Assembly (NCBI GenBank): GCA_005400705.1
Contig: GCA_005400705.1_4079.1
Length of the DNA: 64,000 nucleotides
Reading direction: 5' to 3' (one strand)
DNA from: Escherichia coli
GTDB lineage: Bacteria; Pseudomonadota; Gammaproteobacteria; Enterobacterales; Enterobacteriaceae
In this document: positions 21,207-50,362 of the stretch, piece after piece
How the letters are laid out: each line of letters begins with the position of its first letter
Numbering within the stretch: position 1 is the first letter of the stretch
Made by a program: the position numbers and the translations under genes
The notes under the pieces: generated by a model
Seen by the model: the letters and a program-made list of their open reading frames with translations, nothing else
What the model was told of the DNA's origin: nothing
The model's database searches: none

Positions 21207-21234
21207 TAGACAAACCGTAAGAATGTGATATAAT
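21207..21234 (+). promoter_or_regulatory. sigma70-type early promoter (TAGACA-N16-TGaTATAAT)
   Basis: -35-like TAGACA 21207-21212, 16-nt spacer, extended -10 TGaTATAAT 21226-21234, about 40 nt upstream of the clpA-like start. Confidence 0.6.
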
Positions 21235-21274
21235 GTTTATTAATTAGAGTGACGTGAATCACATAGGAGAATAC

Positions 21275-23563
21275 ATGAATCTTACTCAATTGTTCAAAAA
21301 AAGCGACGAACTGGCAACATCTCTAGGTCATACATTCTTGACTATTGACCACGTAAGTGCCACAGTACTGACTATTGATAGCATCAAGAACGTATTTGAA
21401 GATATGAACATTGATGCAGACAAACTGCACAACCGCCTAATGAACTATCTTAAAAATACAACAGTTCCACATGCACCAAAAAGTGTTAAAGATGAAGACG
21501 CGAATCGCACTTCACTTCTAGTGAATCGCGTTGTACATGAGCTTTCAAAAAAATCAGTTATTGAACAACTAAAAAGTGATGATTTTTCGATTGATGCATA
21601 TTTTGTTCTATTCGAATGTCTGTCTTTCCCTAACACAGCACTAGAAGCTGCGTTAAAAGAAGAAGGTGTTAGCTGTACTGAAGCTGCACGTGCATTACAG
21701 AAACACGTTGAGTCACTTGATAAGGGTATCAACTTACAAAGTATTAATGACGAACCGATTGGAGATAAAAAAGTGGCCCAACAGCAGCAATCATCTAAAC
21801 AAAAAGGTTTGGAAGACTATACAACGAATCTAACTGCTCTTGCAAAAGAAGGCAAACTAGATCCTATGATTGGTCGCCAGAAAGAATTGTCTGCATTGAT
21901 TGAGACTCTTGCTCGCAAAACCAAAAAGAATGCTATTCTCACTGGTGAAGCTGGTGTAGGTAAAACACAAATCATCGACGGGCTTGCACAAGCTATTGCT
22001 GATGGTAACGTACCTGAACACTTGAAAGACGTTGAAATTCTTTCACTAAATGTTGGTGCATTGACTGCTGGTACTAAGTATCGTGGTGAGTTTGAAGAAC
22101 GCATCGACAATTTGCTAAAAGAACTAAAGAAACGTGAAAATACTATTGTTTTCATTGATGAAATTCATATTATGGTTGGGGCTGGTTCCGCAAGTAATGG
22201 TTCTATGGACATGAGCAATATGCTTAAGCCAGCACTTTCACGTGGTGAGATTCGTGTAATTGGTGCAACAACATATGATGAATATCGTAAAAATATCGAG
22301 AAAGATAGTGCATTAACTCGTCGTTTTATGAAAATTGACGTAGTTGAGCCGACAATTGATGAAACTCGTGCAATTGTTAATGGTTTGAAACCAACGTATG
22401 AAAAATTCCATAATGTTGAGTTCACATCTGATGCAATGGATGCTGTAATTTCTCTCAGTGATAAATTCCTGAAGAATAAGCACTTCCCAGATAAAGCAAT
22501 TGATCTAATGGACGCTGCTGCTGCAAAAGTTCGTTCACGTGACAACAATAGTAAGCTTATTACTGCCAATTTGATTCAAGAAGTTGTTGCTGGTATTGCC
22601 AATTTGGATATCAACGTGGTTGCATGTACTGAAAGTGATCGTATGCGTAATCTACCAGATGCACTACGCTCACGTGTATACGGTCAAGAGGAAGCTATTC
22701 AAAAATTAGTTGATAACGTGATGGTAGCTCGTGCAGGACTGCGTGACAAATCTAGTGTTCAGGGTGCATTTATGTTTGTTGGACCATCTGGCACTGGTAA
22801 AACAGAAATTACCAAAGCATTAGCAGATGCAACTGGTGCGGAACTGATTCGCTTTGATATGTCAGAATTTTCTCAAGAACATACTGTTTCTAAACTAATT
22901 GGTTCACCTCCAGGTTATGTTGGTCATGATTCTGGTAACGGTTTACTGTTGGATAAAATTGAGCAGTTCCCTAATGCAGTACTGTTACTTGATGAAATTG
23001 AAAAAGCAGATCGTAAAGTCCTACTAACCTTCCTACAGGTTTTGGATGAAGGTCGCCTGACTGGTTCACAAGGTAAAACTGTATATTTTAATAACGTAAC
23101 TGTTATTATGACTACAAACCTTGGTGCAGCAGATTCAACGAAGCGTAGTATTGGTATGAGCGGTAGTGATACTGCACAAGACAAGGCAATTAAAGCATTC
23201 TTGCCACCAGAGTTCATTAACCGTATTGATAGTATCGTTACGTTTAAAGACCTAAGCAGTGAAGCTATTGACAGCATCATTGATAAGTTCATGGGCAGTT
23301 TGAATGAACAAGTCAAAGACCGCAATGTTAAAGTTACATTGACAAAAGCTGCACGTGAATGGCTTGCGAAAAATGGGGTAAAAGTTGGCATGGGTGCACG
23401 TCCAATGAAACGTACCATTGAACAAAACATTCGTGTACCACTAGCTAAAGAAATGTTGTGTGGTTCACTTGTTAATGGTGGAAACATTACATTTGATGTT
23501 ATTGATGGTAAAATCGGTATTAAACCGAAACGTTCCAAAGCTGTAGATAAAGCACTGGCATAA
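21275..23563 (+). CDS. clpA: ClpA-type two-ring AAA+ unfoldase (Clp ATPase)
   Basis: Clp N-domain; D1 Walker [10 protein letters not shown]1 pore loop [10 protein letters not shown]1 Walker B IVFIDEIH; D2 Walker [10 protein letters not shown]2 pore loop GYVGHD, D2 Walker [10 protein letters not shown]; long colinear similarity to E. coli ClpA as recalled from memory; start set at ATG 21275 (AGGAGA RBS) rather than the GTG at 21254. Confidence 0.9.
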
Positions 23564-23565
23564 AA

Positions 23566-23598
23566 AAGAAAAGGAGAGCAATATGCTCTCCTTTTTTA
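23566..23598. terminator. bidirectional intrinsic terminator
   Basis: AAGGAGAGC / GCTCTCCTT inverted repeat followed by TTTTTATT between convergent clpA-like and giant baseplate genes. Confidence 0.75.
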
Positions 23599-26500
23599 TT
23601 ACTTAACTAATAATATATTTTTAATATCATTACCACTAACTTGTAGACTATCAGTGTATACTGAAAGATCTATAGTGTAACTATTTTGTGTGTAACGTTT
23701 TAACATATCATAATTACCTAAATTAATTCCATTGAAAGAATATGTAGTATTAAGTTTAAAATCATGTTCTGCACTATACATTACACCACGGAGTAAATTA
23801 TTTGCATTTCTAACTTCAACTTTTTCATATCCAATCGATATAATATCATTCATGTTCGCGGCTGAACCGGATAAAACATTATTTCTAATACTATAAGGAC
23901 TTATTGATTTAGGTTGAGAAACATAGGTTGTATTTTCTTCACTAATGGTTGTGATGTTAGTAACAGTACCACCAACAACACCGATATACATACCGTCAAC
24001 CATTGGGAATCCATAAACCCATATCCCTTCATTATTTCTAAACGGTTGAATAACACTTGAATCATATTCAATAACGTTGATTTCTAAACTATCAGTCATT
24101 TTAGTTCTTGCTAATTCACTAAGAACTCCCGCACCAGTAATTGGTAGGTTATAACCGTTGTCGATAGTAATTCCATCAACATCAAATATTTCGTTAGAGA
24201 TTATCCAAACGTCAACGTCATCTGGTGTTATTCCGTCATTGTACTTACCACCATTTAAAGTAGTATCGTAGAAAACATCATAATTAATTACATCAATTGT
24301 GTAATTTCTATTTTGTTCGTACAATTTGATACCATTCTTCACAAATTCTGGGTCAGCAAATGTTCTAACACGAACAATGTTCAATGCAAGAGGCTGTACT
24401 GGCTCATTTTGTTGTGCAAGAGTGATATTATCATAACGGAGAACTGTACCAGTACTCTCATCAATCAATTCAATCGTTTCTTTACCTGTATTTCTTACAG
24501 TGAATAGGATCGGAGTTGTATTGTTTTTGATGTTAGATACACGCAAGATTGTTTCCCATGTGTGATTTTGATATCTCACAAAATCTTCACCATCAGGAGT
24601 GAAAATCATCACCTTATCACCATCAGATAGGTCATTGTCAACTATTTCTGCTTCAGTTAAGCTATTAATAGATCTCACACGATAGAAATATTTTTCATCA
24701 AACTTCGATGTTGTTTTATTAATATCATTTTCAATCTTAGCATATGAAGGAATACTTACAATTGCTTCTGTATGTTTATATGGATTGATAATTGCCATAC
24801 CTTCAGTTTGATATCTGCTGTTATCACGTAATTGTACAAGAGATACATTGTCAAACCCATATCCATCAACTGTAAATCTAATTTGACCTACATCACGCCC
24901 AGAAGGGTTTATGTCAGATATATCCACAATATAAGGATCAACTTCATCATCTTTAACTTCCCATTTTATTGAAGAAGTTTGAGATTCCAATGCTAGGTTA
25001 TCAAATGCATTCATATCATTGAAGTACTTAGCTTCAGTAATACTATCAAGTATATATTGATAATCAGAATACATTGGATTATTTTGATCTAGTGGTAAAT
25101 CATCAAGATTTATTTCAGCTAGTTCAACCATTTCACCATTTGTGATAAAATAATCTTCCATGAAATCATCAATACTTTGTTCATCAGGTATACTTTGATA
25201 TACACCGTTAACATTTAAGTAAACATATTTTCGTGGAATCATTGTAATTGCATAGATATCAATTGGGGTCTTACTAAGAATCTCTTCAGCTTTTTCGTAC
25301 TTATCAGTAGCGTCTTTGTCGAATAACCCTCTCATACCTGCTAATACGTGAATAGCATCAGTATAGAAACGGGTATCACCACCTACTTCATCATAACGAT
25401 AAACATATACACCATACTCAACTTCAAGTTTAACTTTTACTTCATAGTCTGATGCGTCAGGATTTTTATCTTTAATTAATGAAATGTATTTTTGATACAA
25501 TTCACTGCTTATTTCAAAATATCCATAGTTATAATCATTACTAGAAGAAAAGCCTAATGGAAGTCTAGTACTAGGATTGTCATTATAAGTAAGTCCACTA
25601 AATCCACATCCAACTTCATCGTGAATTTTCTCATCACTTATATCTTTATAAAGTTTCAAACGGTTTGCCAATGTGTTATACTGAACATATTGTCTAAGGT
25701 CAGTAAACATATCGTTATGCGTTGATTCTTTATAAACACGTTCCAATGTAGCAGTGAATTCATCAGTTGCTTCTAAATCTTCCGCATGGTCTTTATACCA
25801 CTGGTTAACGCCATATGCTGTTCCTAGTGTTACATCCAATTCTGGATAGTAGATTTGCATTTGATAAGCAATAAGAAGATCGAAAGTTTCTTCACTATAT
25901 TCTGGGAAAGAATATATATAACGTTGTAATTCATAGTTACTAACAGCATCCTTTTCATTGGATTGATATTTGTTATTAACACTTACTAATTCATTTATGC
26001 TTGCCAAATCTTCATTTGGTTTACACTGAATATTATCATAATGCATAATAATATCAATTTCTTGGAATCTTCTATTTGGTGTAACGAAATCACTTGGTAG
26101 TGAACCTACCTGTTCCCATTTTTGGGTAATTTCATTAAATTGAGCGTACTCATAATCCCAAATATCTTTTTCAGTTTTGATCCAAGAACCATCAACGAAA
26201 ATATATCCATTAGGATCTAAATCATTACATAGACCTTTTATTAAATCATCATCAGATGTCTTTTGCTCTATTTGTGAACGAATTTTAGTTCTATAAGGTT
26301 TAACTTCTTCAAAATATTCAACAATTTGATTAATCAAATTATCGTTTGAATAGTTTTGAACTAATGATTGTTCCAAACCAACAATATAGATATATGATGT
26401 TTTAAATACCCAATCCACAACACTTTGTTCAACATGTACATATTTGACCATATCAAAAACAATTTCGCTTTGATGTAAATCGAAAGAATTTTTGAGTAAA

Positions 26501-29500
26501 GCTAGTGCTTTACGAACGTTGATTTCACGATTGCTTAGTGAACCATTATCATTATGAACACTATAATCTGCGTAAAGCATATCATTGAGTTCAACTGTAC
26601 TGTTTTCACGACCAATCGCTTTCCAATAAATTGAATCGCGTGATTGTGATTTAATATACAATGTCCAAATGTTTTCACTATCGGTAACTCTGATAATATC
26701 GCCAACTTGGTAGTTTTTAGTATTAGCATCTTCTAAGCTTGACTCTTGAGTATAAGTCGTGTTACTATCATACCCAACATCATACCAATCAGCATATGAC
26801 CAGTACTGAGTCATGTCCAATGAAGTTCCTAGTGATTCAACATAATCAGATTGTTTAATCATTTTATGTTGTCCCTCACCTTTGTTCTCTAACGTTATAG
26901 TAACAACACTACCCGCGTTTGCTGGACTATTCATTAACTGAATATATCCATTTTCGTCGAAGTGAATAAAATAAACAGCACTAGAAGTTAATGGATTTGG
27001 TAGATATCCACTAGTACTTAAAATAACAGCGTCATTTTCTTTAAATTTATCACTTTCAACTGCAATAACTAATTCATTATTGTAAGACAATACACGGAAA
27101 GAAACTTCATTCGGATTAACTTCAGTGGTTTTAACATTAAACACATCTTCCATAACAACACTATTAGTGGTTATGTTTTGTGACCTATAATAATTATTAG
27201 CACTTTCTACAAAGTTTCTACGAGCTTCTATAACATTTTGGAACCAAGTTTTGTTTGATCCTAAACCGTTATCAACATCTGGATATAATAAATTAATCAC
27301 AGAACCTGATTCAGTTGTTTCTTGACCAATTAGTGAGTTCCACATTGAATCCCAAATTAGTGGGTTAAAGTTATAGCTGTCACCTTCTTTACATAGTTGA
27401 TACTGGTCATGTTTAACAACTTCAGTACTATCCATGTAATAAGAAACAGTTAAAATACTAGTATCATCATTCACTTTAAATTGCATATTACTAAGAATAA
27501 ACGAGTTTTCATTGATTGGAGCGAACCAAGGAATGTTTAGCTGTGTTGGATCTTTAATAATACGAGCAATGTCAGTACATGATTTTGTTCTGGTATGTAG
27601 TGGTGGTACATAAATTGTATCACGTACCCAGAAATAGTATTTTGTCACATAACTATCAGTTGAACTATCATATTCCAAAAATGTACTATAATTATCTTCA
27701 AGTGCAGTTCCACTTGGTAGATACATAGTATTATTTTTGTTTTTCTTAGCAACATCTTTACAGTATTTGTCCCAGTTATATGGCTCAACTGGTGAACAAA
27801 CCCACTCTAACACATCAATTGTACTATGTGGTAATAAACGACCCCAGTTGTAACGTTTGTATTCATTTGTTGCATCAATGTCAACATTACCGTCTGCGTC
27901 ATAAATTGCACGAGTATAATCCAAATAAAATGCAGTGCTAGTGTTCCACCATACTTGACCAACTTTATCAGCACCCCAAGCTTGGATTAACTCTCCATTA
28001 CTATTATACTGTGCAGGATCAACTGGTGAAGTATATGTTACGTTTTGCATAGCCGCACCTGGAATAACACCATTAATTGGGTCATAAACGTTTAGATATA
28101 ACTCAGTAATGTTAGTACGTTCGTCATATGTCGTTGGACGATCAAATAAAGTACTTTGTGGTGCTTTAAAACTATATTTCTTGTCAATGTAAGCTTGACG
28201 TTCATCAGTACTGACAAAACGTGATACATAACGATACAAACGTGGGCGTGTATCTGGATCAGTAAATTCAATATCAATAGAAGTGTCAAATGGAACTACC
28301 ATAACTTTAGGATCAGAACCAGCAGTATAATATTGACTTTCTACTGTTAAAGTATCTGGCATAAAGTTAGTTTCATCAACAAAATAATAATAATCACCAT
28401 CTTCAAGTGGTACATTATCAGTTAATGTTACTTTACAAAATTGTTCAGCATACACATCGGTATTTTCAATAGGTGTTATAGAAACCATTTGTACATTAGT
28501 ATCAACCAATTCAAAAATGTTCCACAAACCATTACCGTCTTTAAACATCCACACAGATTCAGGATTTTCACCTTTACCATTAGTATAAGTTATGCGGTCA
28601 TTATATGCAGTACTGAAATCTTTTGTTGTGTACGATACTTCATCCAATGTTACTGGACCAATATCTGGAAGTTGGATATTTTCACTTCTTCCACTACGCA
28701 TTGGGAATGAGAACTTACCATTTGGACGTGTAATCCAACGAGGATCTTTACCCTGCTCACCGAAGTATACAATATGATTACCATTACCATTTGAAGTTGC
28801 ATTTACATCAAAAGAAACCATTTGAGGTTGTTGTTTAAATTGGTCATTAATCAATTTAAATTGAAGATTTTTCTTACCATCAATATTACCATATGTACCA
28901 ATTTTAAATGCCCATTCTTGTAATGCTTTATATTCATCTGTGTCATATGATTTAGAAACACGAAGTACACGTTCTAAAACTTGGTTAGTACCTTTATCAT
29001 GAATGAATCCTTTATAGAAATCAACACGACTAACATCACTACTAATCATACGCTGTAGATAATCACGAGATTGATAACCAATCAAATGGTTTGACAACTC
29101 TTGTAATTGTACATCACTTACTGGAGTTTCACTATCATAATAATGTTGGAAATCCGACACTAATTTTTCAAATGATGGTAGTGTTCCAGCTTCCAAGATA
29201 ATAAATCCAGGAGCTTGTAGACGACCAGTCCATGAACCAGTAATGTAGCCATACATTTTAATTAATTCTTGAATAGAACCATAAGTTGGCTGATAGATAT
29301 AATCACCAAAAATAGTCTTATCATCAAAAATAACAGCATGTTCATATGAACACAAACTTAAACGAATTAATGCTATACGTTTATTGGATTCTAAAGTTCT
29401 AACAGTAAAGATATTACCAATACGAGAAGTTTCAATTTCATATTGACGTATACCTTGGTTGTTATCATCAAGTAATGACCACACACCACCGTTATTTTGT

Positions 29501-32500
29501 GTAATAGATTGAACTGAACCAAAGTCTGCACCAAATTTAGCATTTGCTGCACTTGGTGTACAAGAAATAAATTCACCCGTTACCAGAGAATTCTGACTCC
29601 AGATCACAAAATCTTTAGCAATAGTGTTCCAATCTTGTTGAGCACCACTATCATTTACATCTTCAAAAATCCAGCCATGTTCTTTAAGATATTCACCATA
29701 ACCACAAATAAAAGTATAAACTTCTTGGTAACTATTAAAAACTTTACCATATTCAATGGAAGCTTCAGATTTCCATTCGTTATAATGAACAACATTGCGG
29801 TTTTCTAATTTAAGAGTTACTTTTCTACCATTTTTCACTGGCAGTTTATATTTGAATTTAGCACCAACTAAATCATATCCATCAATCTGATATGCACTAC
29901 CATTCCAAGTAATTTTGATAGCACTCATTTGTTCATCACGAATATTATTCGAGCGAACAAGACCAATAGTTTGGTTTTCTTGTGAAATAAGACCAAATGA
30001 TTTAGCATTGAATGTTAGCTGATCTGCTTTAGTAAAACCACCAATTTTATGACCAACATTTATATAAGAAGAACGAACTACATCCCCATATTTGGTTGTA
30101 ATGTTTTTATTTTGATACATCAAATAATCACTAACAAACATTTGATAACCAATTGTTCTTGTGTTATTTTCACCATGAACTACAGTGTTTTTATCAAAAT
30201 TAATACGCTTACGTGTATCACCATAAAGGAATTGTGAACCATCAGTGAATACTTCTTTTAAATTGTCATTTCGGGTATCCCAAAAATAGTTAGCAAATTG
30301 TGCAGGTTTAGCTTTATACAAAAGTAGCATTTGGTCATATGCAAACAATGTAGTGTTCATGTATGTAAATTCCATGTCACCCATGTCACCATATGCCCAA
30401 GGTTCTGCTCTATGATTTAAAGAACCAGACACTAAACCTAAAATTTCAGGTGCAATATATTCAACAACACAAATATCAATACCGGAAGATGTTTTATTAC
30501 CAGTTTTTGTGATTTTAAATGGCTGTACACCAAATCTTTTATATTTGTCATACTGTCCACGGCGATCACCAGACAAAATAGTACCAGTACTACTATCTCC
30601 GATAGTGCCGTCGATATCCCATAGACCACTAGGAACTAAATCTCCTTGTTCATTCATAACAAGTGCTTCATATACATATACCACATCACTATCACGCTCA
30701 CCAACTTGAACAGCAGTTGGTTCATATTCTTGGTTCCACCAAGTTGGACGCTGTGAAAAGCCAAACATTTCCCACGGATGTGTTGCAGGGCGATATGTAC
30801 CATATTGGTCAGTATAAATTGCACGCCATGAACCACGAGCAGGAATTTCAGTACTTTGACCATTAACTACATAATAAGTGCCAGTATAGTTCCAAGTTCT
30901 CCAATTGTTAGGATCATAATCATGTGTACTATTACTGATACCATTAGTTGCGGTGAAGTTAATGTATCCACGTAGTAATAATGTTTGTTTCTCTTCAGCA
31001 CTATATTCAGTTTTAGTGAAATATGGTGTAGGGAAAAGGTCATCACTATTCAATACTGGTACGTAATCAACATCTTTGAATTTATTATCAATACTATTAA
31101 AAATTCTATTTTCTAATTCATATACAACATCATCCATTTTATCAACACCATTGATAACACGGTATGCTTTGGAAATAATACCAGTATGACTGATGTTATA
31201 ACAGCTTGGTTTACTACCAGCAGTGAGGAATGTCGCTTTTTCTGGTACATATGCTTGAAGAATACCTAAGAACTGTGGTGTTGGTGGTATAAATGCACGA
31301 ATGAATCCAGAAGTACTTCCAACATTATCATAATAGAATGGGAATGAACTATCACGTCCCATATTAATAGTAGTTAAAATTGCATCAACAATGTTTGCAG
31401 CACTATTTTGTAAAAAGTCTGATGGATTTTCATCATACATACGAAGCATTTGTGTATTAAATTTATTAATGAATCTAAAATATTCAGATTGCATAAACAT
31501 AGTTGCTTCAAACAAATCAATATCTTCATTTGCAGTATGTGCCATCAATGGAAGCATAGATGCTTCATTTTGGATAATTTTAGTACCTACGCCATTATTA
31601 ACCAATCCTTTAGCCAAACGTTCTTCATAGTCATTGAAATCATCAGAAGAACCACGTGTAATGTTCTTTTGAATAATATCCTGAAAATGTAAAGTGTAGT
31701 CACCTTGGTTAATGTATATAATATTAGAATTATATGGGTTATTTTGTAGGTTGATTGGAACTTCATATGCACCTAATTCTTTATTAGGAGTTACAGTACT
31801 GCTATAAGTTCTGATTTGAATAACAGAATCTTCATCCAAATCTACAGTACTATCTAGAGTGATGCTTTGTACTTGACCTTTTGAAACATTTTTGGTATAT
31901 TTGGACACATCAACACCATCAACCACAACTTCAATAATATCAGAATCATTATCTAAAACTTTTTGTGCCAATTCGAATGTATGGTCATATTTTACAATCT
32001 GAACACCATCACCAGTAATTGGATGCCAATCTAGATAAGTTTCACGGTCAGCTTTATAGTACTGATATGTTCTATCAACTTCAATAACATATGCATACAT
32101 ACCATCAACTGGTTCTTTAAAAACTTCCATATCATAAACAGTACTGAATACACGATACATATCAGTACGTTGGACTTGTGGAGTTTGTTTTACAAATTGT
32201 TTAGAGTACTCTTCTGAACGAACCCAATCGGTTTGAAGATTCATTTCATTATTTTCATCAATAATGTTATAATAGTATAAACCATCAATTTCAACTTCTT
32301 TCCCAAGATGGTCATAGGTATAACGTTGGGATTGTAAAAAGTTTTCATAAATGTAATAATTATAATCACCAAGTTCAATGTTATATCCATATACACTATC
32401 AGTTGCATAGTTGTAATTTATTTTAAAACCAAACAACTCTGAACCTTTAAAGTTACTTGATGGATATGTAGTACTGTTGTCAAGTTTGATACCATTACGA

Positions 32501-33570
32501 TCATAAAGTTGGAATTTAGGGAATATGTTAACACTAGTTTTTGATTGTGCACGAACCCACAAAGATCCATTCCAGTACATAGAACTATTACCATACTCAT
32601 TACCTTTAGTGATTAGAACAACATCACCATCTTGAGGTTCACCACTTGGGCGTGATTCGGTTTCTTCTTCTGGATCTAGTGCTAAACCATAAACACGCGT
32701 ACCATCTTGCATTTTTTTCACATATACATTATAAATTCTATTGTTTTCACCATTGTTACCAATACTGGTGAATAGAATACGCATTCCATCTTGCGGAATA
32801 ATACCATCAATACGTATACCACTATTAATATCTTTTTGAACGATATCTTCAGGTTTAATAATATCAGAGAACAGATCAACAGTTCCACGGAATTTTGTAC
32901 CGTAGTTCATTAGCTCAATATTTTTATTATATTCAATAATTGGTGCACGTGCACGAATAAAACGTGAATCTTGCATTAATTCTTCAGTTAATATTGAGCC
33001 ATCTTCTAATGTTTCACCTAAAGTATACCAAAAGTTTTGTAGTGACCATGTATTACCATTAAGTGCTCCACGTTCCATTACAATGTAATCAGGTGAAGTA
33101 ATATTATAAGAGTTTTTAGTATCCCAAAGATATGAGCTAAAATTGTTCATTTTATTTGGGTTAATAGCTGGAGTCCATGCATAAAACTTACCGTTGAACA
33201 AACGGCTTTCATTATCGGTTAGTGCTCCATAATGATTCATGTATCCAACTAGATCATCATAAAATTGAATTGAACGAATTGTCGAATCATCATTTTTTGA
33301 GACGTAAGCAGTGGACAACTGATAAAGTTGACGTGCTACAGTACTTTCATGTAAGAAGATATTACCAGCAGCGGCAGGAGAACCCATATCACCAATATAG
33401 CCGTCAACTAATTCGTTTTCAGCCGGATTAAACCATTGTTGAATAACATCATCACTGACTTTTTGAATATCTTCTAAGCCTTGCATCCACTCAGGCAATC
33501 TTTTAATAAAAAGCTTCTTCTGTACTGCTTCAGCCATCTGTGTAGGTTGAAACTTAAAATTATTAGTCAT
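23599..33570 (-). CDS. giant baseplate wedge / tail structural protein (about 3320 aa, gp7-like position)
   Basis: Single uninterrupted ORF of about 10 kb directly downstream of the gp6-like gene; ORF track gives 33600 as start but ATG 33570 has a GGAG RBS at 6-nt spacing and the first ATG has none. Confidence 0.55.
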   Translation of the reverse strand: MTNNFKFQPTQMAEAVQKKLFIKRLPEWMQGLEDIQKVSDDVIQQWFNPAENELVDGYIGDMGSPAAAGNIFLHESTVARQLYQLSTAYVSKNDDSTIRSIQFYDDLVGYMNHYGALTDNESRLFNGKFYAWTPAINPNKMNNFSSYLWDTKNSYNITSPDYIVMERGALNGNTWSLQNFWYTLGETLEDGSILTEELMQDSRFIRARAPIIEYNKNIELMNYGTKFRGTVDLFSDIIKPEDIVQKDINSGIRIDGIIPQDGMRILFTSIGNNGENNRIYNVYVKKMQDGTRVYGLALDPEEETESRPSGEPQDGDVVLITKGNEYGNSSMYWNGSLWVRAQSKTSVNIFPKFQLYDRNGIKLDNSTTYPSSNFKGSELFGFKINYNYATDSVYGYNIELGDYNYYIYENFLQSQRYTYDHLGKEVEIDGLYYYNIIDENNEMNLQTDWVRSEEYSKQFVKQTPQVQRTDMYRVFSTVYDMEVFKEPVDGMYAYVIEVDRTYQYYKADRETYLDWHPITGDGVQIVKYDHTFELAQKVLDNDSDIIEVVVDGVDVSKYTKNVSKGQVQSITLDSTVDLDEDSVIQIRTYSSTVTPNKELGAYEVPINLQNNPYNSNIIYINQGDYTLHFQDIIQKNITRGSSDDFNDYEERLAKGLVNNGVGTKIIQNEASMLPLMAHTANEDIDLFEATMFMQSEYFRFINKFNTQMLRMYDENPSDFLQNSAANIVDAILTTINMGRDSSFPFYYDNVGSTSGFIRAFIPPTPQFLGILQAYVPEKATFLTAGSKPSCYNISHTGIISKAYRVINGVDKMDDVVYELENRIFNSIDNKFKDVDYVPVLNSDDLFPTPYFTKTEYSAEEKQTLLLRGYINFTATNGISNSTHDYDPNNWRTWNYTGTYYVVNGQSTEIPARGSWRAIYTDQYGTYRPATHPWEMFGFSQRPTWWNQEYEPTAVQVGERDSDVVYVYEALVMNEQGDLVPSGLWDIDGTIGDSSTGTILSGDRRGQYDKYKRFGVQPFKITKTGNKTSSGIDICVVEYIAPEILGLVSGSLNHRAEPWAYGDMGDMEFTYMNTTLFAYDQMLLLYKAKPAQFANYFWDTRNDNLKEVFTDGSQFLYGDTRKRINFDKNTVVHGENNTRTIGYQMFVSDYLMYQNKNITTKYGDVVRSSYINVGHKIGGFTKADQLTFNAKSFGLISQENQTIGLVRSNNIRDEQMSAIKITWNGSAYQIDGYDLVGAKFKYKLPVKNGRKVTLKLENRNVVHYNEWKSEASIEYGKVFNSYQEVYTFICGYGEYLKEHGWIFEDVNDSGAQQDWNTIAKDFVIWSQNSLVTGEFISCTPSAANAKFGADFGSVQSITQNNGGVWSLLDDNNQGIRQYEIETSRIGNIFTVRTLESNKRIALIRLSLCSYEHAVIFDDKTIFGDYIYQPTYGSIQELIKMYGYITGSWTGRLQAPGFIILEAGTLPSFEKLVSDFQHYYDSETPVSDVQLQELSNHLIGYQSRDYLQRMISSDVSRVDFYKGFIHDKGTNQVLERVLRVSKSYDTDEYKALQEWAFKIGTYGNIDGKKNLQFKLINDQFKQQPQMVSFDVNATSNGNGNHIVYFGEQGKDPRWITRPNGKFSFPMRSGRSENIQLPDIGPVTLDEVSYTTKDFSTAYNDRITYTNGKGENPESVWMFKDGNGLWNIFELVDTNVQMVSITPIENTDVYAEQFCKVTLTDNVPLEDGDYYYFVDETNFMPDTLTVESQYYTAGSDPKVMVVPFDTSIDIEFTDPDTRPRLYRYVSRFVSTDERQAYIDKKYSFKAPQSTLFDRPTTYDERTNITELYLNVYDPINGVIPGAAMQNVTYTSPVDPAQYNSNGELIQAWGADKVGQVWWNTSTAFYLDYTRAIYDADGNVDIDATNEYKRYNWGRLLPHSTIDVLEWVCSPVEPYNWDKYCKDVAKKNKNNTMYLPSGTALEDNYSTFLEYDSSTDSYVTKYYFWVRDTIYVPPLHTRTKSCTDIARIIKDPTQLNIPWFAPINENSFILSNMQFKVNDDTSILTVSYYMDSTEVVKHDQYQLCKEGDSYNFNPLIWDSMWNSLIGQETTESGSVINLLYPDVDNGLGSNKTWFQNVIEARRNFVESANNYYRSQNITTNSVVMEDVFNVKTTEVNPNEVSFRVLSYNNELVIAVESDKFKENDAVILSTSGYLPNPLTSSAVYFIHFDENGYIQLMNSPANAGSVVTITLENKGEGQHKMIKQSDYVESLGTSLDMTQYWSYADWYDVGYDSNTTYTQESSLEDANTKNYQVGDIIRVTDSENIWTLYIKSQSRDSIYWKAIGRENSTVELNDMLYADYSVHNDNGSLSNREINVRKALALLKNSFDLHQSEIVFDMVKYVHVEQSVVDWVFKTSYIYIVGLEQSLVQNYSNDNLINQIVEYFEEVKPYRTKIRSQIEQKTSDDDLIKGLCNDLDPNGYIFVDGSWIKTEKDIWDYEYAQFNEITQKWEQVGSLPSDFVTPNRRFQEIDIIMHYDNIQCKPNEDLASINELVSVNNKYQSNEKDAVSNYELQRYIYSFPEYSEETFDLLIAYQMQIYYPELDVTLGTAYGVNQWYKDHAEDLEATDEFTATLERVYKESTHNDMFTDLRQYVQYNTLANRLKLYKDISDEKIHDEVGCGFSGLTYNDNPSTRLPLGFSSSNDYNYGYFEISSELYQKYISLIKDKNPDASDYEVKVKLEVEYGVYVYRYDEVGGDTRFYTDAIHVLAGMRGLFDKDATDKYEKAEEILSKTPIDIYAITMIPRKYVYLNVNGVYQSIPDEQSIDDFMEDYFITNGEMVELAEINLDDLPLDQNNPMYSDYQYILDSITEAKYFNDMNAFDNLALESQTSSIKWEVKDDEVDPYIVDISDINPSGRDVGQIRFTVDGYGFDNVSLVQLRDNSRYQTEGMAIINPYKHTEAIVSIPSYAKIENDINKTTSKFDEKYFYRVRSINSLTEAEIVDNDLSDGDKVMIFTPDGEDFVRYQNHTWETILRVSNIKNNTTPILFTVRNTGKETIELIDESTGTVLRYDNITLAQQNEPVQPLALNIVRVRTFADPEFVKNGIKLYEQNRNYTIDVINYDVFYDTTLNGGKYNDGITPDDVDVWIISNEIFDVDGITIDNGYNLPITGAGVLSELARTKMTDSLEINVIEYDSSVIQPFRNNEGIWVYGFPMVDGMYIGVVGGTVTNITTISEENTTYVSQPKSISPYSIRNNVLSGSAANMNDIISIGYEKVEVRNANNLLRGVMYSAEHDFKLNTTYSFNGINLGNYDMLKRYTQNSYTIDLSVYTDSLQVSGNDIKNILLVK

Positions 33571-33611
33571 TTTTGGACTCCATATAATTCGTTCATTCAT
33601 TTGATTTATTT

Positions 33612-37111: not shown

Positions 37112-37172
37112 AATTTATTCCTTTAAATCAGTAAAGTACTAGATCAGTACTGGGAATTATATATAGAAATAT

Positions 37173-48787: not shown

Positions 48788-48793
48788 AGCGTT

Positions 48794-48822
48794 TTGTCCT
48801 GTTTCTGTAAATAATGTATATT
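48794..48822 (+). promoter_or_regulatory. putative sigma70 promoter of the homing endonuclease gene (TTGTCC-N17-TATATT)
   Basis: -35-like TTGTCC 48794-48799 and -10-like TATATT 48817-48822 upstream of ATG 48848; weaker match than the other promoters. Confidence 0.3.
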
Positions 48823-48847
48823 AAAAAGTTTTGTGAGGTACACAAGA

Positions 48848-49804
48848 ATGGCTAAAATTACACAACAACAATTCATAGATAAATCAATGAATATTCATGG
48901 TAGTATTTACACATACAATAAAACAATATATGTCAATGCACACCATCCAATAACTGTTACGTGTAACATTCACGGTGACTTCACAGTAGTTCCTAATAAA
49001 CACATTTCTGCAAAACAAGGTTGTCCAGTTTGTTCTGATATTGCAAAGAAAGAACGAAAGTCTAAAAAATCTCTGGGGTCATTCTTCACTGAAGCTACCG
49101 AAGTTCATGGTGATAAGTATGATTACTCAAAAGTGTTTTTTAACATTCGTTCAGAAAAGATTACTATTATATGCAAAGAAAAAGGTCATGGTGAATTTAA
49201 TCAAGTAGTTAGTAATCATCTATCTGGACAAGGTTGCCCTGAATGTGCCAAAATTCAAAATGGATTAAAGAAGAGAACTCCAGAAGATGTGTTCTTTGAA
49301 GATTGTAAGTTCATACACATGGATAATTATGATTACTCTAATACAAAATATAATGGCATGTATGAAACCATTACACCATTATGTAAGAGACATGGGGAAT
49401 TCACCGTACTAGCTACTAAGCATTATCATAGAAAACAAGGGTGTCCAGTTTGTTCAGACCAAGAACTAAAATCAAAACCTGTTATTGAAATTCAGAATTT
49501 TTTAAAAACGTGTGATATAATGTTTGAAATGGAAAAGAAATTTGATAGTTGTAAAAACATCAATCATTTACCATTTGATTTTTATATTCCTGAACTTAAT
49601 CTACTAATAGAATATGATGGTATCCAACACTTCAAACCAATAGAATACTTCGGTGGAGAAGAAGGTTTAGCTGAACAACAACGAAATGATGAAATTAAGA
49701 ATAAGTATTGTTATGATAATAATATTACTTTACTTAGAATAAAGTATTCAGATGACCACATTAAAATTATAAAAGACTTCATATCAAAAAATATAAATTA
49801 TTGA
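48848..49804 (+). CDS. free-standing homing endonuclease-like protein: zinc-ribbon repeat array plus Vsr/PD-(D/E)xK-type nuclease domain
   Basis: Three ~45-aa repeats ending in GCPxC (YDYS...HG.F...GCPVCSD) followed by LLIEYDGIQHF...RND.IKN...LLRI resembling the very-short-patch-repair-like endonuclease fold; ORF-track start is GTG at 48833; ATG 48848 has a GAGG RBS. Confidence 0.6.
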   Translation: MAKITQQQFIDKSMNIHGSIYTYNKTIYVNAHHPITVTCNIHGDFTVVPNKHISAKQGCPVCSDIAKKERKSKKSLGSFFTEATEVHGDKYDYSKVFFNIRSEKITIICKEKGHGEFNQVVSNHLSGQGCPECAKIQNGLKKRTPEDVFFEDCKFIHMDNYDYSNTKYNGMYETITPLCKRHGEFTVLATKHYHRKQGCPVCSDQELKSKPVIEIQNFLKTCDIMFEMEKKFDSCKNINHLPFDFYIPELNLLIEYDGIQHFKPIEYFGGEEGLAEQQRNDEIKNKYCYDNNITLLRIKYSDDHIKIIKDFISKNINY

Positions 49805-49816
49805 ATAGTTTTTATG

Positions 49817-49850
49817 AACCAAGTAATGTTTTGTTACTTGGTTTTTTTAT
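49817..49850 (+). terminator. intrinsic terminator
   Basis: AACCAAGTAA / TTACTTGGTT 10-bp stem with 7-nt loop followed by TTTTTTTAT. Confidence 0.75.
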
Positions 49851-49897
49851 ACTTCAAAAATGTACTAAGTACTTTTTTATTTTTTTATGATATTAGT

Positions 49898-49925
49898 GGG
49901 AAGATTTTAAAAATGGTGCTATAAT
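49898..49925 (+). promoter_or_regulatory. sigma70-type early promoter (GGGAAG-N16-TGcTATAAT) with no ORF downstream
   Basis: GTGGGAAG 49896-49903, 16-nt spacer, extended -10 TGcTATAAT 49917-49925; near-identical core to the gp55 promoter. Confidence 0.55.
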
Positions 49926-49973
49926 GTTTGTTGTAGTAATGACAATCCTGTTGAATGCAGAAATGCATATAAA

Positions 49974-50060
49974 TTAGAACCTGATCCTATCGAAAATGTA
50001 GATGGCAGATGAGCAGTTCAACAGTGCGATGAGCAAAAGAAACCCGTTAGATGTGGGCAT
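49974..50060 (-). CDS. candidate 28-aa hydrophobic peptide (MPTSNGFLLLIALLNCSSAIYIFDRIRF), antisense to the putative ncRNA
   Basis: ATG 50058-50060 on the minus strand preceded by GAGGGG at 8-nt spacing; predicted single hydrophobic helix; no convincing minus-strand promoter found. Confidence 0.2.
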   Translation of the reverse strand: MPTSNGFLLLIALLNCSSAIYIFDRIRF

Positions 50061-50362
50061 AGTTTGAACCCCTCACGGCAATGCGGCTCAATAAAGAACT
50101 CCGATAAGCATACAGAGAGTTCCTAGATAGACATATAAGGATCGCACCTTACCAGATTTGCTAAGGGAGTTTATTAAGTGATTTTAATAAACAGCCTGAA
50201 GTTTGATTGTATAGACTTTCAGGTGAGTGTCAGGATGATTAAGACTGACGACCGTTGCACATGACTGCGATAGAGAGAAACAGAGCAACCCGCTTTCGTT
50301 CTTAATATATTTTTAAGAAATTCGCAATACAATAAATGCTGAAACCATCAGCGTCAAGAAAT

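Follow-up and report, generated by a model that had tools for sequence, protein, structure and literature searches.

A full-length ClpA-type unfoldase with a homologous ClpP-docking loop in an Escherichia coli jumbo phage

The closest described counterpart of the gene considered here is the ClpA unfoldase of Escherichia coli, known from the ClpAP and ClpAPS systems (PDB 1KSF, 6W1Z and 7UIV), which joins an N-domain, two AAA+ modules (D1 and D2) and a small C-terminal subdomain in that order. The ClpC-ClpP, ClpE-ClpP and ClpX-ClpP systems have in common the principle that hydrophobic-Gly-hydrophobic loops dock in pockets of ClpP, and some of these unfoldases differ in build: ClpC carries an M-domain and uses the adaptor MecA, whereas ClpX is a single-ring protein with a zinc-binding domain. 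Here we describe a clpA-like gene in a 64,000-nucleotide (nt) stretch of DNA (hereafter the window; E. coli, GenBank assembly GCA_005400705.1, contig GCA_005400705.1_4079.1), which belongs to an E. coli jumbo phage of ~350 kb and is a real and intact gene for a protein unfoldase of the ClpA type. The gene is a known and annotated member of a known family and adds no new kind of system. Its interest lies in the fact that a virulent phage brings a full unfoldase, peptidase and adaptor set into a host that already has ClpAPS, which raises the questions of what gets degraded and whether the phage proteins are insulated from the host machinery.

ClpA, ClpP, ClpS and ClpX have been listed in jumbo phages by Attai et al. 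2018 (PMC6102473) and Iyer et al. 2021 (PMC7824862), and the same papers describe ClpA as conserved among most RaK2-like phages. These surveys treat the Clp parts singly; for example, phage ClpS is assigned to host ClpAP and ClpA is viewed as an assembly translocase, and in the view of Iyer et al. jumbo-phage ClpA and ClpX may act as translocases or help in assembly. The docking loop, the ClpP pocket and the promoters lay outside their analysis. We consider it fairly probable that the product of the gene is the hexameric, ATP-driven unfoldase of a phage ClpAP-type protease, which would have a ClpS-like specificity factor and act inside the infected cell. To our knowledge, a ClpAP machine encoded by a phage is yet to be characterised. 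The partner genes, the variable docking tripeptide, the altered ClpP pocket, the non-canonical ClpS pocket and the shared early-type promoters provide testable handles on such a machine.

The clpA gene and its product

The window is 98-99% identical in nucleotide sequence to Asteriusvirus jumbo myoviruses of ~350 kb (121Q, PBECO4, phAPEC6 and SP27). Its ClpA belongs to the RaK2-like ClpA family (121Q gp581, RaK2 ORF069, GAP32_229 and phAPEC6 gp246c), which corresponds to PHROG 4871 (matched by the window protein at 1036 bits), and it lies one or two residues from published records: identity is 99.7% to 121Q gp581 and 99.9% to the closest record, that of Salmonella phage SD-6_S16. The protein is 75% identical to its counterpart in RaK2 and 62% in GAP32, with the same synteny. 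The gene is named 'ClpA-like' in the 121Q record, and many GenBank records label homologues ClpA or ATP-dependent Clp protease. The parts of the gene and of its product (residues in amino acids, aa) are given below, with the motifs from D1 onwards located by alignment.

21264..21267, plus strand: Shine-Dalgarno sequence GGAG, 7 nt ahead of the ATG, aligned with AGGA or AGGAG in relatives
21275..23563, plus strand: clpA-like coding sequence, 762 aa and a TAA stop, equal to 121Q gp581, phAPEC6 gp246c and RaK2 ORF069
21275..21724, plus strand: Clp N-domain (aa 1-150), fast-evolving and helical throughout, from Pfam Clp_N and an alignment, starting at residue 17, with that of E. coli ClpA
21809..22609, plus strand: AAA+ module D1 (aa 179-445)
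21944-21967, plus strand: D1 Walker A, GEAGVGKT
22076-22087, plus strand: D1 pore loop KYRG (K268-Y-R-G)
22151-22168, plus strand: D1 Walker B, FIDEIH
22319-22327, plus strand: D1 Arg fingers, RRF (R349/R350)
22610..23509, plus strand: AAA+ module D2 (aa 446-745)
22781-22804, plus strand: D2 Walker A, GPSGTGKT
22913-22924, plus strand: D2 pore loop GYVG (G547-Y-V-G)
22982-23005, plus strand: D2 Walker B, LLLDEIEK
23150..23158, plus strand: IGM tripeptide (aa 626-628), at the position of the IGL ClpP-docking loop of ClpA
23213-23230, plus strand: D2 Arg finger (R650) in FINRID
23393-23407, plus strand: D2 sensor-2, GARPM (R709)

The longest open reading frame (ORF) of the region spans 21254..23563 (GTG start, 769 aa) and closes with a TAA at 23561-23563. 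The likely start is the ATG at 21275, which has GGAG at the right spacing and gives the 762 aa annotated in 121Q and phAPEC6. The initial annotation had counted 765 aa and placed the start at 21207; from the likely start the product is 762 aa long, and 21207 is the first base of a -35-like hexamer outside the ORF. Every peptide motif that it cited was found in the translation.

Pfam domains occur along the product in the order Clp_N, AAA, AAA_lid_9, AAA_2 and ClpB_D2-small, where the Clp_N match (PF02861) is weak, comprising one repeat that barely passes its cutoff (21.7 versus 20.7 bits). The NCBIfam ClpA model TIGR02639 aligns end to end (5-732 of 734) at 755.5 bits, short of its equivalog cutoff of 993, and the bacterial ClpA equivalog NF008263 gives 655 bits against a cutoff of 1350, which it does not reach. 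Judged by its profile scores, the window protein belongs to a divergent phage clade. The best PDB match by phmmer is E. coli ClpA (1e-180), with residues 17-741 colinear with 20-734, and models of ClpB, ClpV, ClpK and ClpG match only as two separated stretches; this split, together with the single colinear ClpA match, indicates that the phage protein has no M-domain.

Comparison with E. coli ClpA shows the same order of N-domain, D1, D2 and small C-terminal subdomain, a similar length (758 aa versus 762 aa in the phage), no M-domain in either protein, shared Walker A/B motifs, pore-1 loops, Arg fingers and sensor-2, and a docking tripeptide in the same column. ClpA is a better, colinear fit than ClpC or ClpX. 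Unlike E. coli ClpA, the phage protein has IGM in place of IGL, is encoded by a virulent phage and is unlinked to clpS. Identity to E. coli ClpA is 51% in D1 and 46% in D2 and only 18.5% in the N-domain, which is the fastest-evolving portion within the phage clade as well. The Walker A/B motifs, the KYRG and GYVG pore loops, the Arg fingers and sensor-2 are all conserved in a 120-sequence alignment, the Walker motifs of both modules are invariant in the family, and the D1 motif residues are invariant or nearly so across 35 homologues. An AlphaFold2 (AF2) model has a helical N-domain (nine helices) and two AAA+ modules, with a mean predicted local distance difference test score (pLDDT) of 79 and values of ~80-89 for N-domain residues 1-60 and 111-150; only the linker, the pore loops and the IGM-bearing loop (624-630) are of low confidence. 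A Foldseek search with this model returned ClpA and ClpC chains. Profiles, alignment and model therefore bear out the Clp N-domain and the two AAA+ modules with Walker motifs and pore loops that had been read from the sequence, and the backbone of this virulent jumbo myovirus does carry a complete unfoldase of the ClpA type whose docking loop is homologous.

A search of 5.8 billion proteins recovered a compact clade of ~114 clusters, from 93% down to 54% identity, with many contigs of ~350 kb among its members. Beyond the clade, identity falls from 54% to 45% and 40%, and this gap sets the phage proteins apart from cellular ClpA. The phage clpA is old and vertically inherited, with no recent capture from the host. 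When IMG/VR was scanned with this one ClpA sequence, the matches were 121Q and three distant loci, too little for a paired analysis.

The docking loop and the phage ClpP and ClpS-like proteins

The IGM tripeptide falls column for column on E. coli I617-G618-L619, with RSIGM opposite KSIGL, a correspondence of sequence homology only; in the AF2 model it lies, at low confidence, in the flexible 624-630 loop between a D2 strand and a helix. The alignment therefore upholds the suggestion that IGM is the counterpart of the ClpP-binding IGL, since the two segments occupy homologous positions. Within the phage clade the tripeptide takes the forms IGM, IGV, LGL, LGM, MGM, VGF, IGA, IGG, MSM and MNM. 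Host ClpP is highly conserved among the hosts of these phages, and the drift of the tripeptide therefore argues against an invariant host partner. Such drift would be easier to accommodate through a co-evolving phage partner, or through relaxed docking in some lineages, than through obligatory use of host ClpP.

Neither clpP nor clpS was found in the window when E. coli ClpP and ClpS and their phage homologues were compared by phmmer with the six-frame translation of the 64 kb, in agreement with the initial annotation. This absence is limited to the window, and so does not mean that the phage must rely on host ClpP: the 121Q record, read whole, encodes both partners, a ClpP (gp464) and a ClpS-fold protein (gp48). 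The copies of both in SD-6_S16 are 100% identical to the 121Q versions.

The gp464 homologue would lie ~84 kb from clpA, outside the window. gp464 matches Pfam CLP_protease over its full length (2-179 of 182) at 141 bits, and it reaches 152-155 bits on ClpP models versus 51 on a ClpP-related head-maturation model, with a score under the TIGR00493 equivalog cutoff (152 versus 309). The Ser-His-Asp triad is kept in gp464 and in seven other phage homologues (eight phage ClpPs aligned). On these scores and residues we read gp464 as a true ClpP with an intact triad. The RefSeq name, prohead protease, was rejected, because the protein scores three times better on ClpP models and a separate T4 gp21-like prohead protease exists in 121Q (gp601).

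In the structure of E. coli ClpAP, 14 ClpP residues contact the IGL loop (bioRxiv 10.1101/820209). At these 14 positions gp464 has two identical residues (Y62 and M92), seven conservative replacements and five changes (Y60T, F82S, L114G, R192P and A52S), and its apical pocket is still mostly hydrophobic. The ClpPs of RaK2-like phages also carry an added, clade-conserved C-terminal tail of ~25 aa (...G.RNE.GK.LVKRR.G.EEWV), which emerges beside pocket residue 189 and is absent from E. coli ClpP and from PA5oct ClpP. The likely partner of the phage ClpA thus has a partly remodelled pocket, unlike that of the E. coli system.

These observations bear on the proposal, made in the initial annotation, that the phage unfoldase feeds host ClpP. 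Phage ClpA could dock on host ClpP, alone or besides the phage ClpP, and so redirect host proteolysis to phage-chosen targets. The homologous docking loop still stands in favour of this arrangement, since hydrophobic-Gly-hydrophobic is the known docking code and IGM occupies the IGL position, and to it can be added the resemblance of D2 to that of E. coli ClpA. Host ClpP is also abundant early in infection. However, the proposal rested on a limited window and is only partly supported. This type of genome has its own full-length ClpP, catalytically intact by sequence and co-occurring with ClpA clade-wide, and the tripeptide is not constant across phages whose hosts have near-identical ClpP. We therefore regard the use of host ClpP as unlikely.

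The second partner candidate, gp48, is a protein of 181 aa that consists of a ClpS core with extra N- and C-terminal segments. It passes the Pfam ClpS cutoff (24.7 versus 23), and a profile of its family (16 members) matches E. coli ClpS at 4e-8. The core of its AF2 model (pLDDT ~82-92) superposes on ClpS structures with a root-mean-square deviation of 1.2 A and a template modelling (TM) score of 0.9, and the top 36 Foldseek matches for this core are all ClpS. At the E. coli positions that we take to be the N-degron pocket (N34, D35, D36, T38, M40 and H66) and the ClpA contacts (E79 and K84), gp48 keeps D35, T38 and E79, has the conservative replacement N34D and is changed at four of the eight (D36P, M40A, H66N and K84F). 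It is probably no canonical N-degron reader. The ClpS-like protein, found in 72 records, evolves fast, with 64% identity in RaK2 and 38% in GAP32.

ClpA, ClpP and the ClpS-like protein occur together in Asteriusvirus, Alcyoneusvirus (RaK2, Muenster and K64-1) and Mimasvirus (GAP32 and XbC2), and also in Eneladusvirus (BF and Yen9-04), Erwinia phages, SE_PL, XaC1 and relatives of these. ClpA and ClpP are co-present in PA5oct and Atu_ph07 as well. No ClpX homologue was found in 121Q.

Several further 121Q genes were recorded along the way. The ClpS-like gene stands between IF3-like and KTSC-domain genes (gp47-gp49), so that a protease adaptor is unusually coupled with a homologue of a translation factor. 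The protein gp473, whose N-terminus (MKRLWLEVVQAVMLLMLINFPASAG...) resembles a signal peptide, is another ClpP-like protein, of degenerate sequence; it and the weakly HslV-like gp475 are encoded 3.4-4.3 kb downstream of the phage clpP, and neither is in the phAPEC6 virion list. As possible partners of ClpA both were rejected, because their matches are too weak (16.7 bits for gp473 and 19 bits for gp475).

Expression, genomic setting and possible roles

The signals around clpA and its large neighbour are as follows.

21207..21234, plus strand: sigma70-type promoter-like site TAGACA-N16-TATAAT, with 11/12 consensus positions and an extended -10 TG
21226-21235, plus strand: extended -10 TGaTATAATg, part of the promoter-like site
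23569..23595, either strand: bidirectional terminator-like site, a 12-bp GC-containing hairpin with an A-run and a T-run on its flanks, in the gap where clpA (stop at 23563) and the 3333-aa gene (stop at 23599) converge
23599-33600, minus strand: 3333-aa ORF beside clpA, whose phAPEC6 homologue gp245 is a virion protein
3598, 21226, 35649, 41948, 48039 (minus strand), 49513 and 49917: sites of the extended -10 decamer TGNTATAATG, from a pattern count

The promoter-like site lies 40 nt upstream of the ATG. TGnTATAATG is invariant before clpA in the window, phage A4, RaK2 and GAP32, which represent four genera, amid diverging flanks, and RaK2 has a perfect TTGACA at -35 with an N18 spacer. The promoter that had been proposed ahead of clpA has the sequence of a putative sigma70-type site. 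In 121Q, sites of the same class occur: clpP is preceded by TGGACA-N16-TGaTATAAT and the IF3-clpS operon by a perfect TTGACA-N17-TATAAT. The decamer occurs seven times in the window versus 1.4 expected by chance, and these sites probably mark promoters for host RNA polymerase that are scattered among structural genes.

The clpA gene lies on the strand opposite to its structural-gene neighbours, a gene for a ~500-aa structural protein and one for a ~3300-aa virion protein, and A4, RaK2 and GAP32 share its placement within the tail/baseplate module. In phAPEC6, gp245 (381.9 kDa) was detected in virions by mass spectrometry with 17 peptides and the neighbouring gp248 was detected too; ClpA (gp246c) and ClpP (gp353c) are not among the 62 virion proteins listed. 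For the remodelling of virion proteins, suggested in the initial annotation, the virion list and the conserved gene position speak neither clearly for nor clearly against. Given the conserved sigma70-type promoters, the opposite strand and this absence from the virion, expression of clpA is likely to be intracellular, driven by host RNA polymerase and probably early.

The same setting could be read as that of a ClpP-independent morphogenesis chaperone or translocase, which would unfold, disaggregate or hand over huge structural proteins, for instance the virion protein of 3333 aa encoded next to it. The conserved position of clpA on the opposite strand between two genes for structural proteins is consistent with such a role, as are the GroES-like and DnaJ-like genes of the same genome and the translocase or assembly roles proposed by Iyer et al. 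However, the sigma70-type promoter appears to be unlike those of the late-gene neighbours, ClpA is undetected in phAPEC6 virions, and the docking-loop position is kept in most clade members, as is the cognate ClpP. The phage protein also has no M-domain, unlike the disaggregases ClpB and ClpG. We therefore find a morphogenesis role improbable.

In the phage ClpAP-type protease that we favour, host RNA polymerase would transcribe clpA from the conserved sigma70-type promoter, and the product would act in the infected cytoplasm, outside the virion. Substrates would be threaded through the D1 and D2 pore loops, while the flexible IGM loops would dock on the phage's own ClpP tetradecamer (the gp464 homologue). 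Substrate choice would probably be set by the diverged N-domain together with the ClpS-fold adaptor (the gp48 homologue). Physical docking on phage ClpP, use of the adaptor, the timing and the substrates, which may be host proteins or else phage or host quality-control clients, are what we infer. Fast evolution of the N-domain and of the ClpS-like protein would be in keeping with targets that change or with an adaptor pair that co-evolves.

Several points weigh against this assignment. The presence of clpP and clpS in the window's own genome is inferred from relatives that are 98-100% identical, and the clpA, clpP and clpS-like genes are dispersed rather than arranged as an operon. The tripeptide is IGG or IGA in some members of the clade and may not dock there at all, and IGM resembles IGL and IGF closely enough that docking on host ClpP may still occur. 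Among eight paired genomes, too few for a firm comparison, the ClpA tripeptide and the ClpP pocket both vary with no clean co-variation. ClpP-like proteins carry virion mass-spectrometry flags in PA5oct and CBB (one peptide). A literature search found no experimental or transcriptomic data on phage ClpA, and phage Clp genes are unmentioned in the PA5oct omics paper and the PhageExpressionAtlas preprint.

A phage ClpAPS might also serve general proteostasis or amino-acid recycling, in which case it would raise the bulk turnover of damaged or host proteins for a 600-gene infection, with no specific targets. The two GroES-like genes of 121Q and its DnaJ Zn-finger-like, HslV-like and second ClpP-like genes are compatible with this function, and Attai et al. 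2018 (PMC6102473) argued similarly for Atu_ph07. However, evolution is fast in both the N-domain and the ClpS-like adaptor, and the adaptor lacks half of its canonical residues, which suggests specific, changing targets over bulk turnover. We consider a purely general function very doubtful.

A more elaborate form of the phage ClpAP-type protease can be proposed tentatively, as a possibility that we do not expect to hold in full. RaK2-like phages might carry a self-contained, orthogonal ClpA-ClpP-ClpS-like protease in which the drifting tripeptide, the remodelled pocket and the ClpP tail insulate the machine from host ClpA, ClpX and ClpP. The fast-evolving N-domain and the non-canonical adaptor might then retarget it to specific host proteins, such as defence or stress factors, early in infection.

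A candidate structured RNA and mobile genes in the window

Comparison of the window with 121Q revealed a non-coding element that seems more novel than the clpA gene. This element and the features near it are listed here.

49972-50349, plus strand: non-coding element of ~400 nt, a candidate structured RNA
49917-49926, plus strand: promoter-like TGcTATAATg ahead of the structured RNA
192835-193241, 90324-90720, 247506-247956 and 326675-327052 of 121Q (NC_025447.1): copies of the element, from sequence similarity
48789-49865: 1077-bp insertion relative to 121Q, which holds a 323-aa ORF (48833-49804, plus strand)

The element is present in four or five copies per genome in 71 RaK2-like phage records (291 places), where most listed copies are unannotated, and copies are 70-79% identical across genera. 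Nine copies from seven phages yield a consensus structure of 14 helices. Paired cells make up 96% of this alignment and 34-43% of slid controls, and compensatory double changes are seen at 37 pairs, versus 7-11 in those controls. None of 500 shuffles reached the observed values. No Rfam family matched the element, and a scan of the window likewise gave no family at its gathering score. Comparison by nhmmer with PA5oct ncRNA001 and ncRNA002 found no similarity, an exact-pattern scan of IMG/VR returned 121Q only, and ARAGORN found no tRNA in the window. On the strength of its conserved pairing, the element is a candidate new RNA family.

Directly upstream of the element is the 1077-bp insertion. 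Its 323-aa ORF has repeated treble-clef zinc-finger motifs (DUF723 and DUF4379) and a DUF2726-like C-terminus, and looks like a free-standing mobile gene of the homing-endonuclease type. At 37127-37155 the window is without a 766-bp HNH endonuclease gene that is present in 121Q (gp584, annotated 'associated with group I intron'), where it stands between baseplate wedge and gp25-like genes. This second difference, as judged from the two aligned genomes, is a polymorphism in which a mobile endonuclease is either present or absent.

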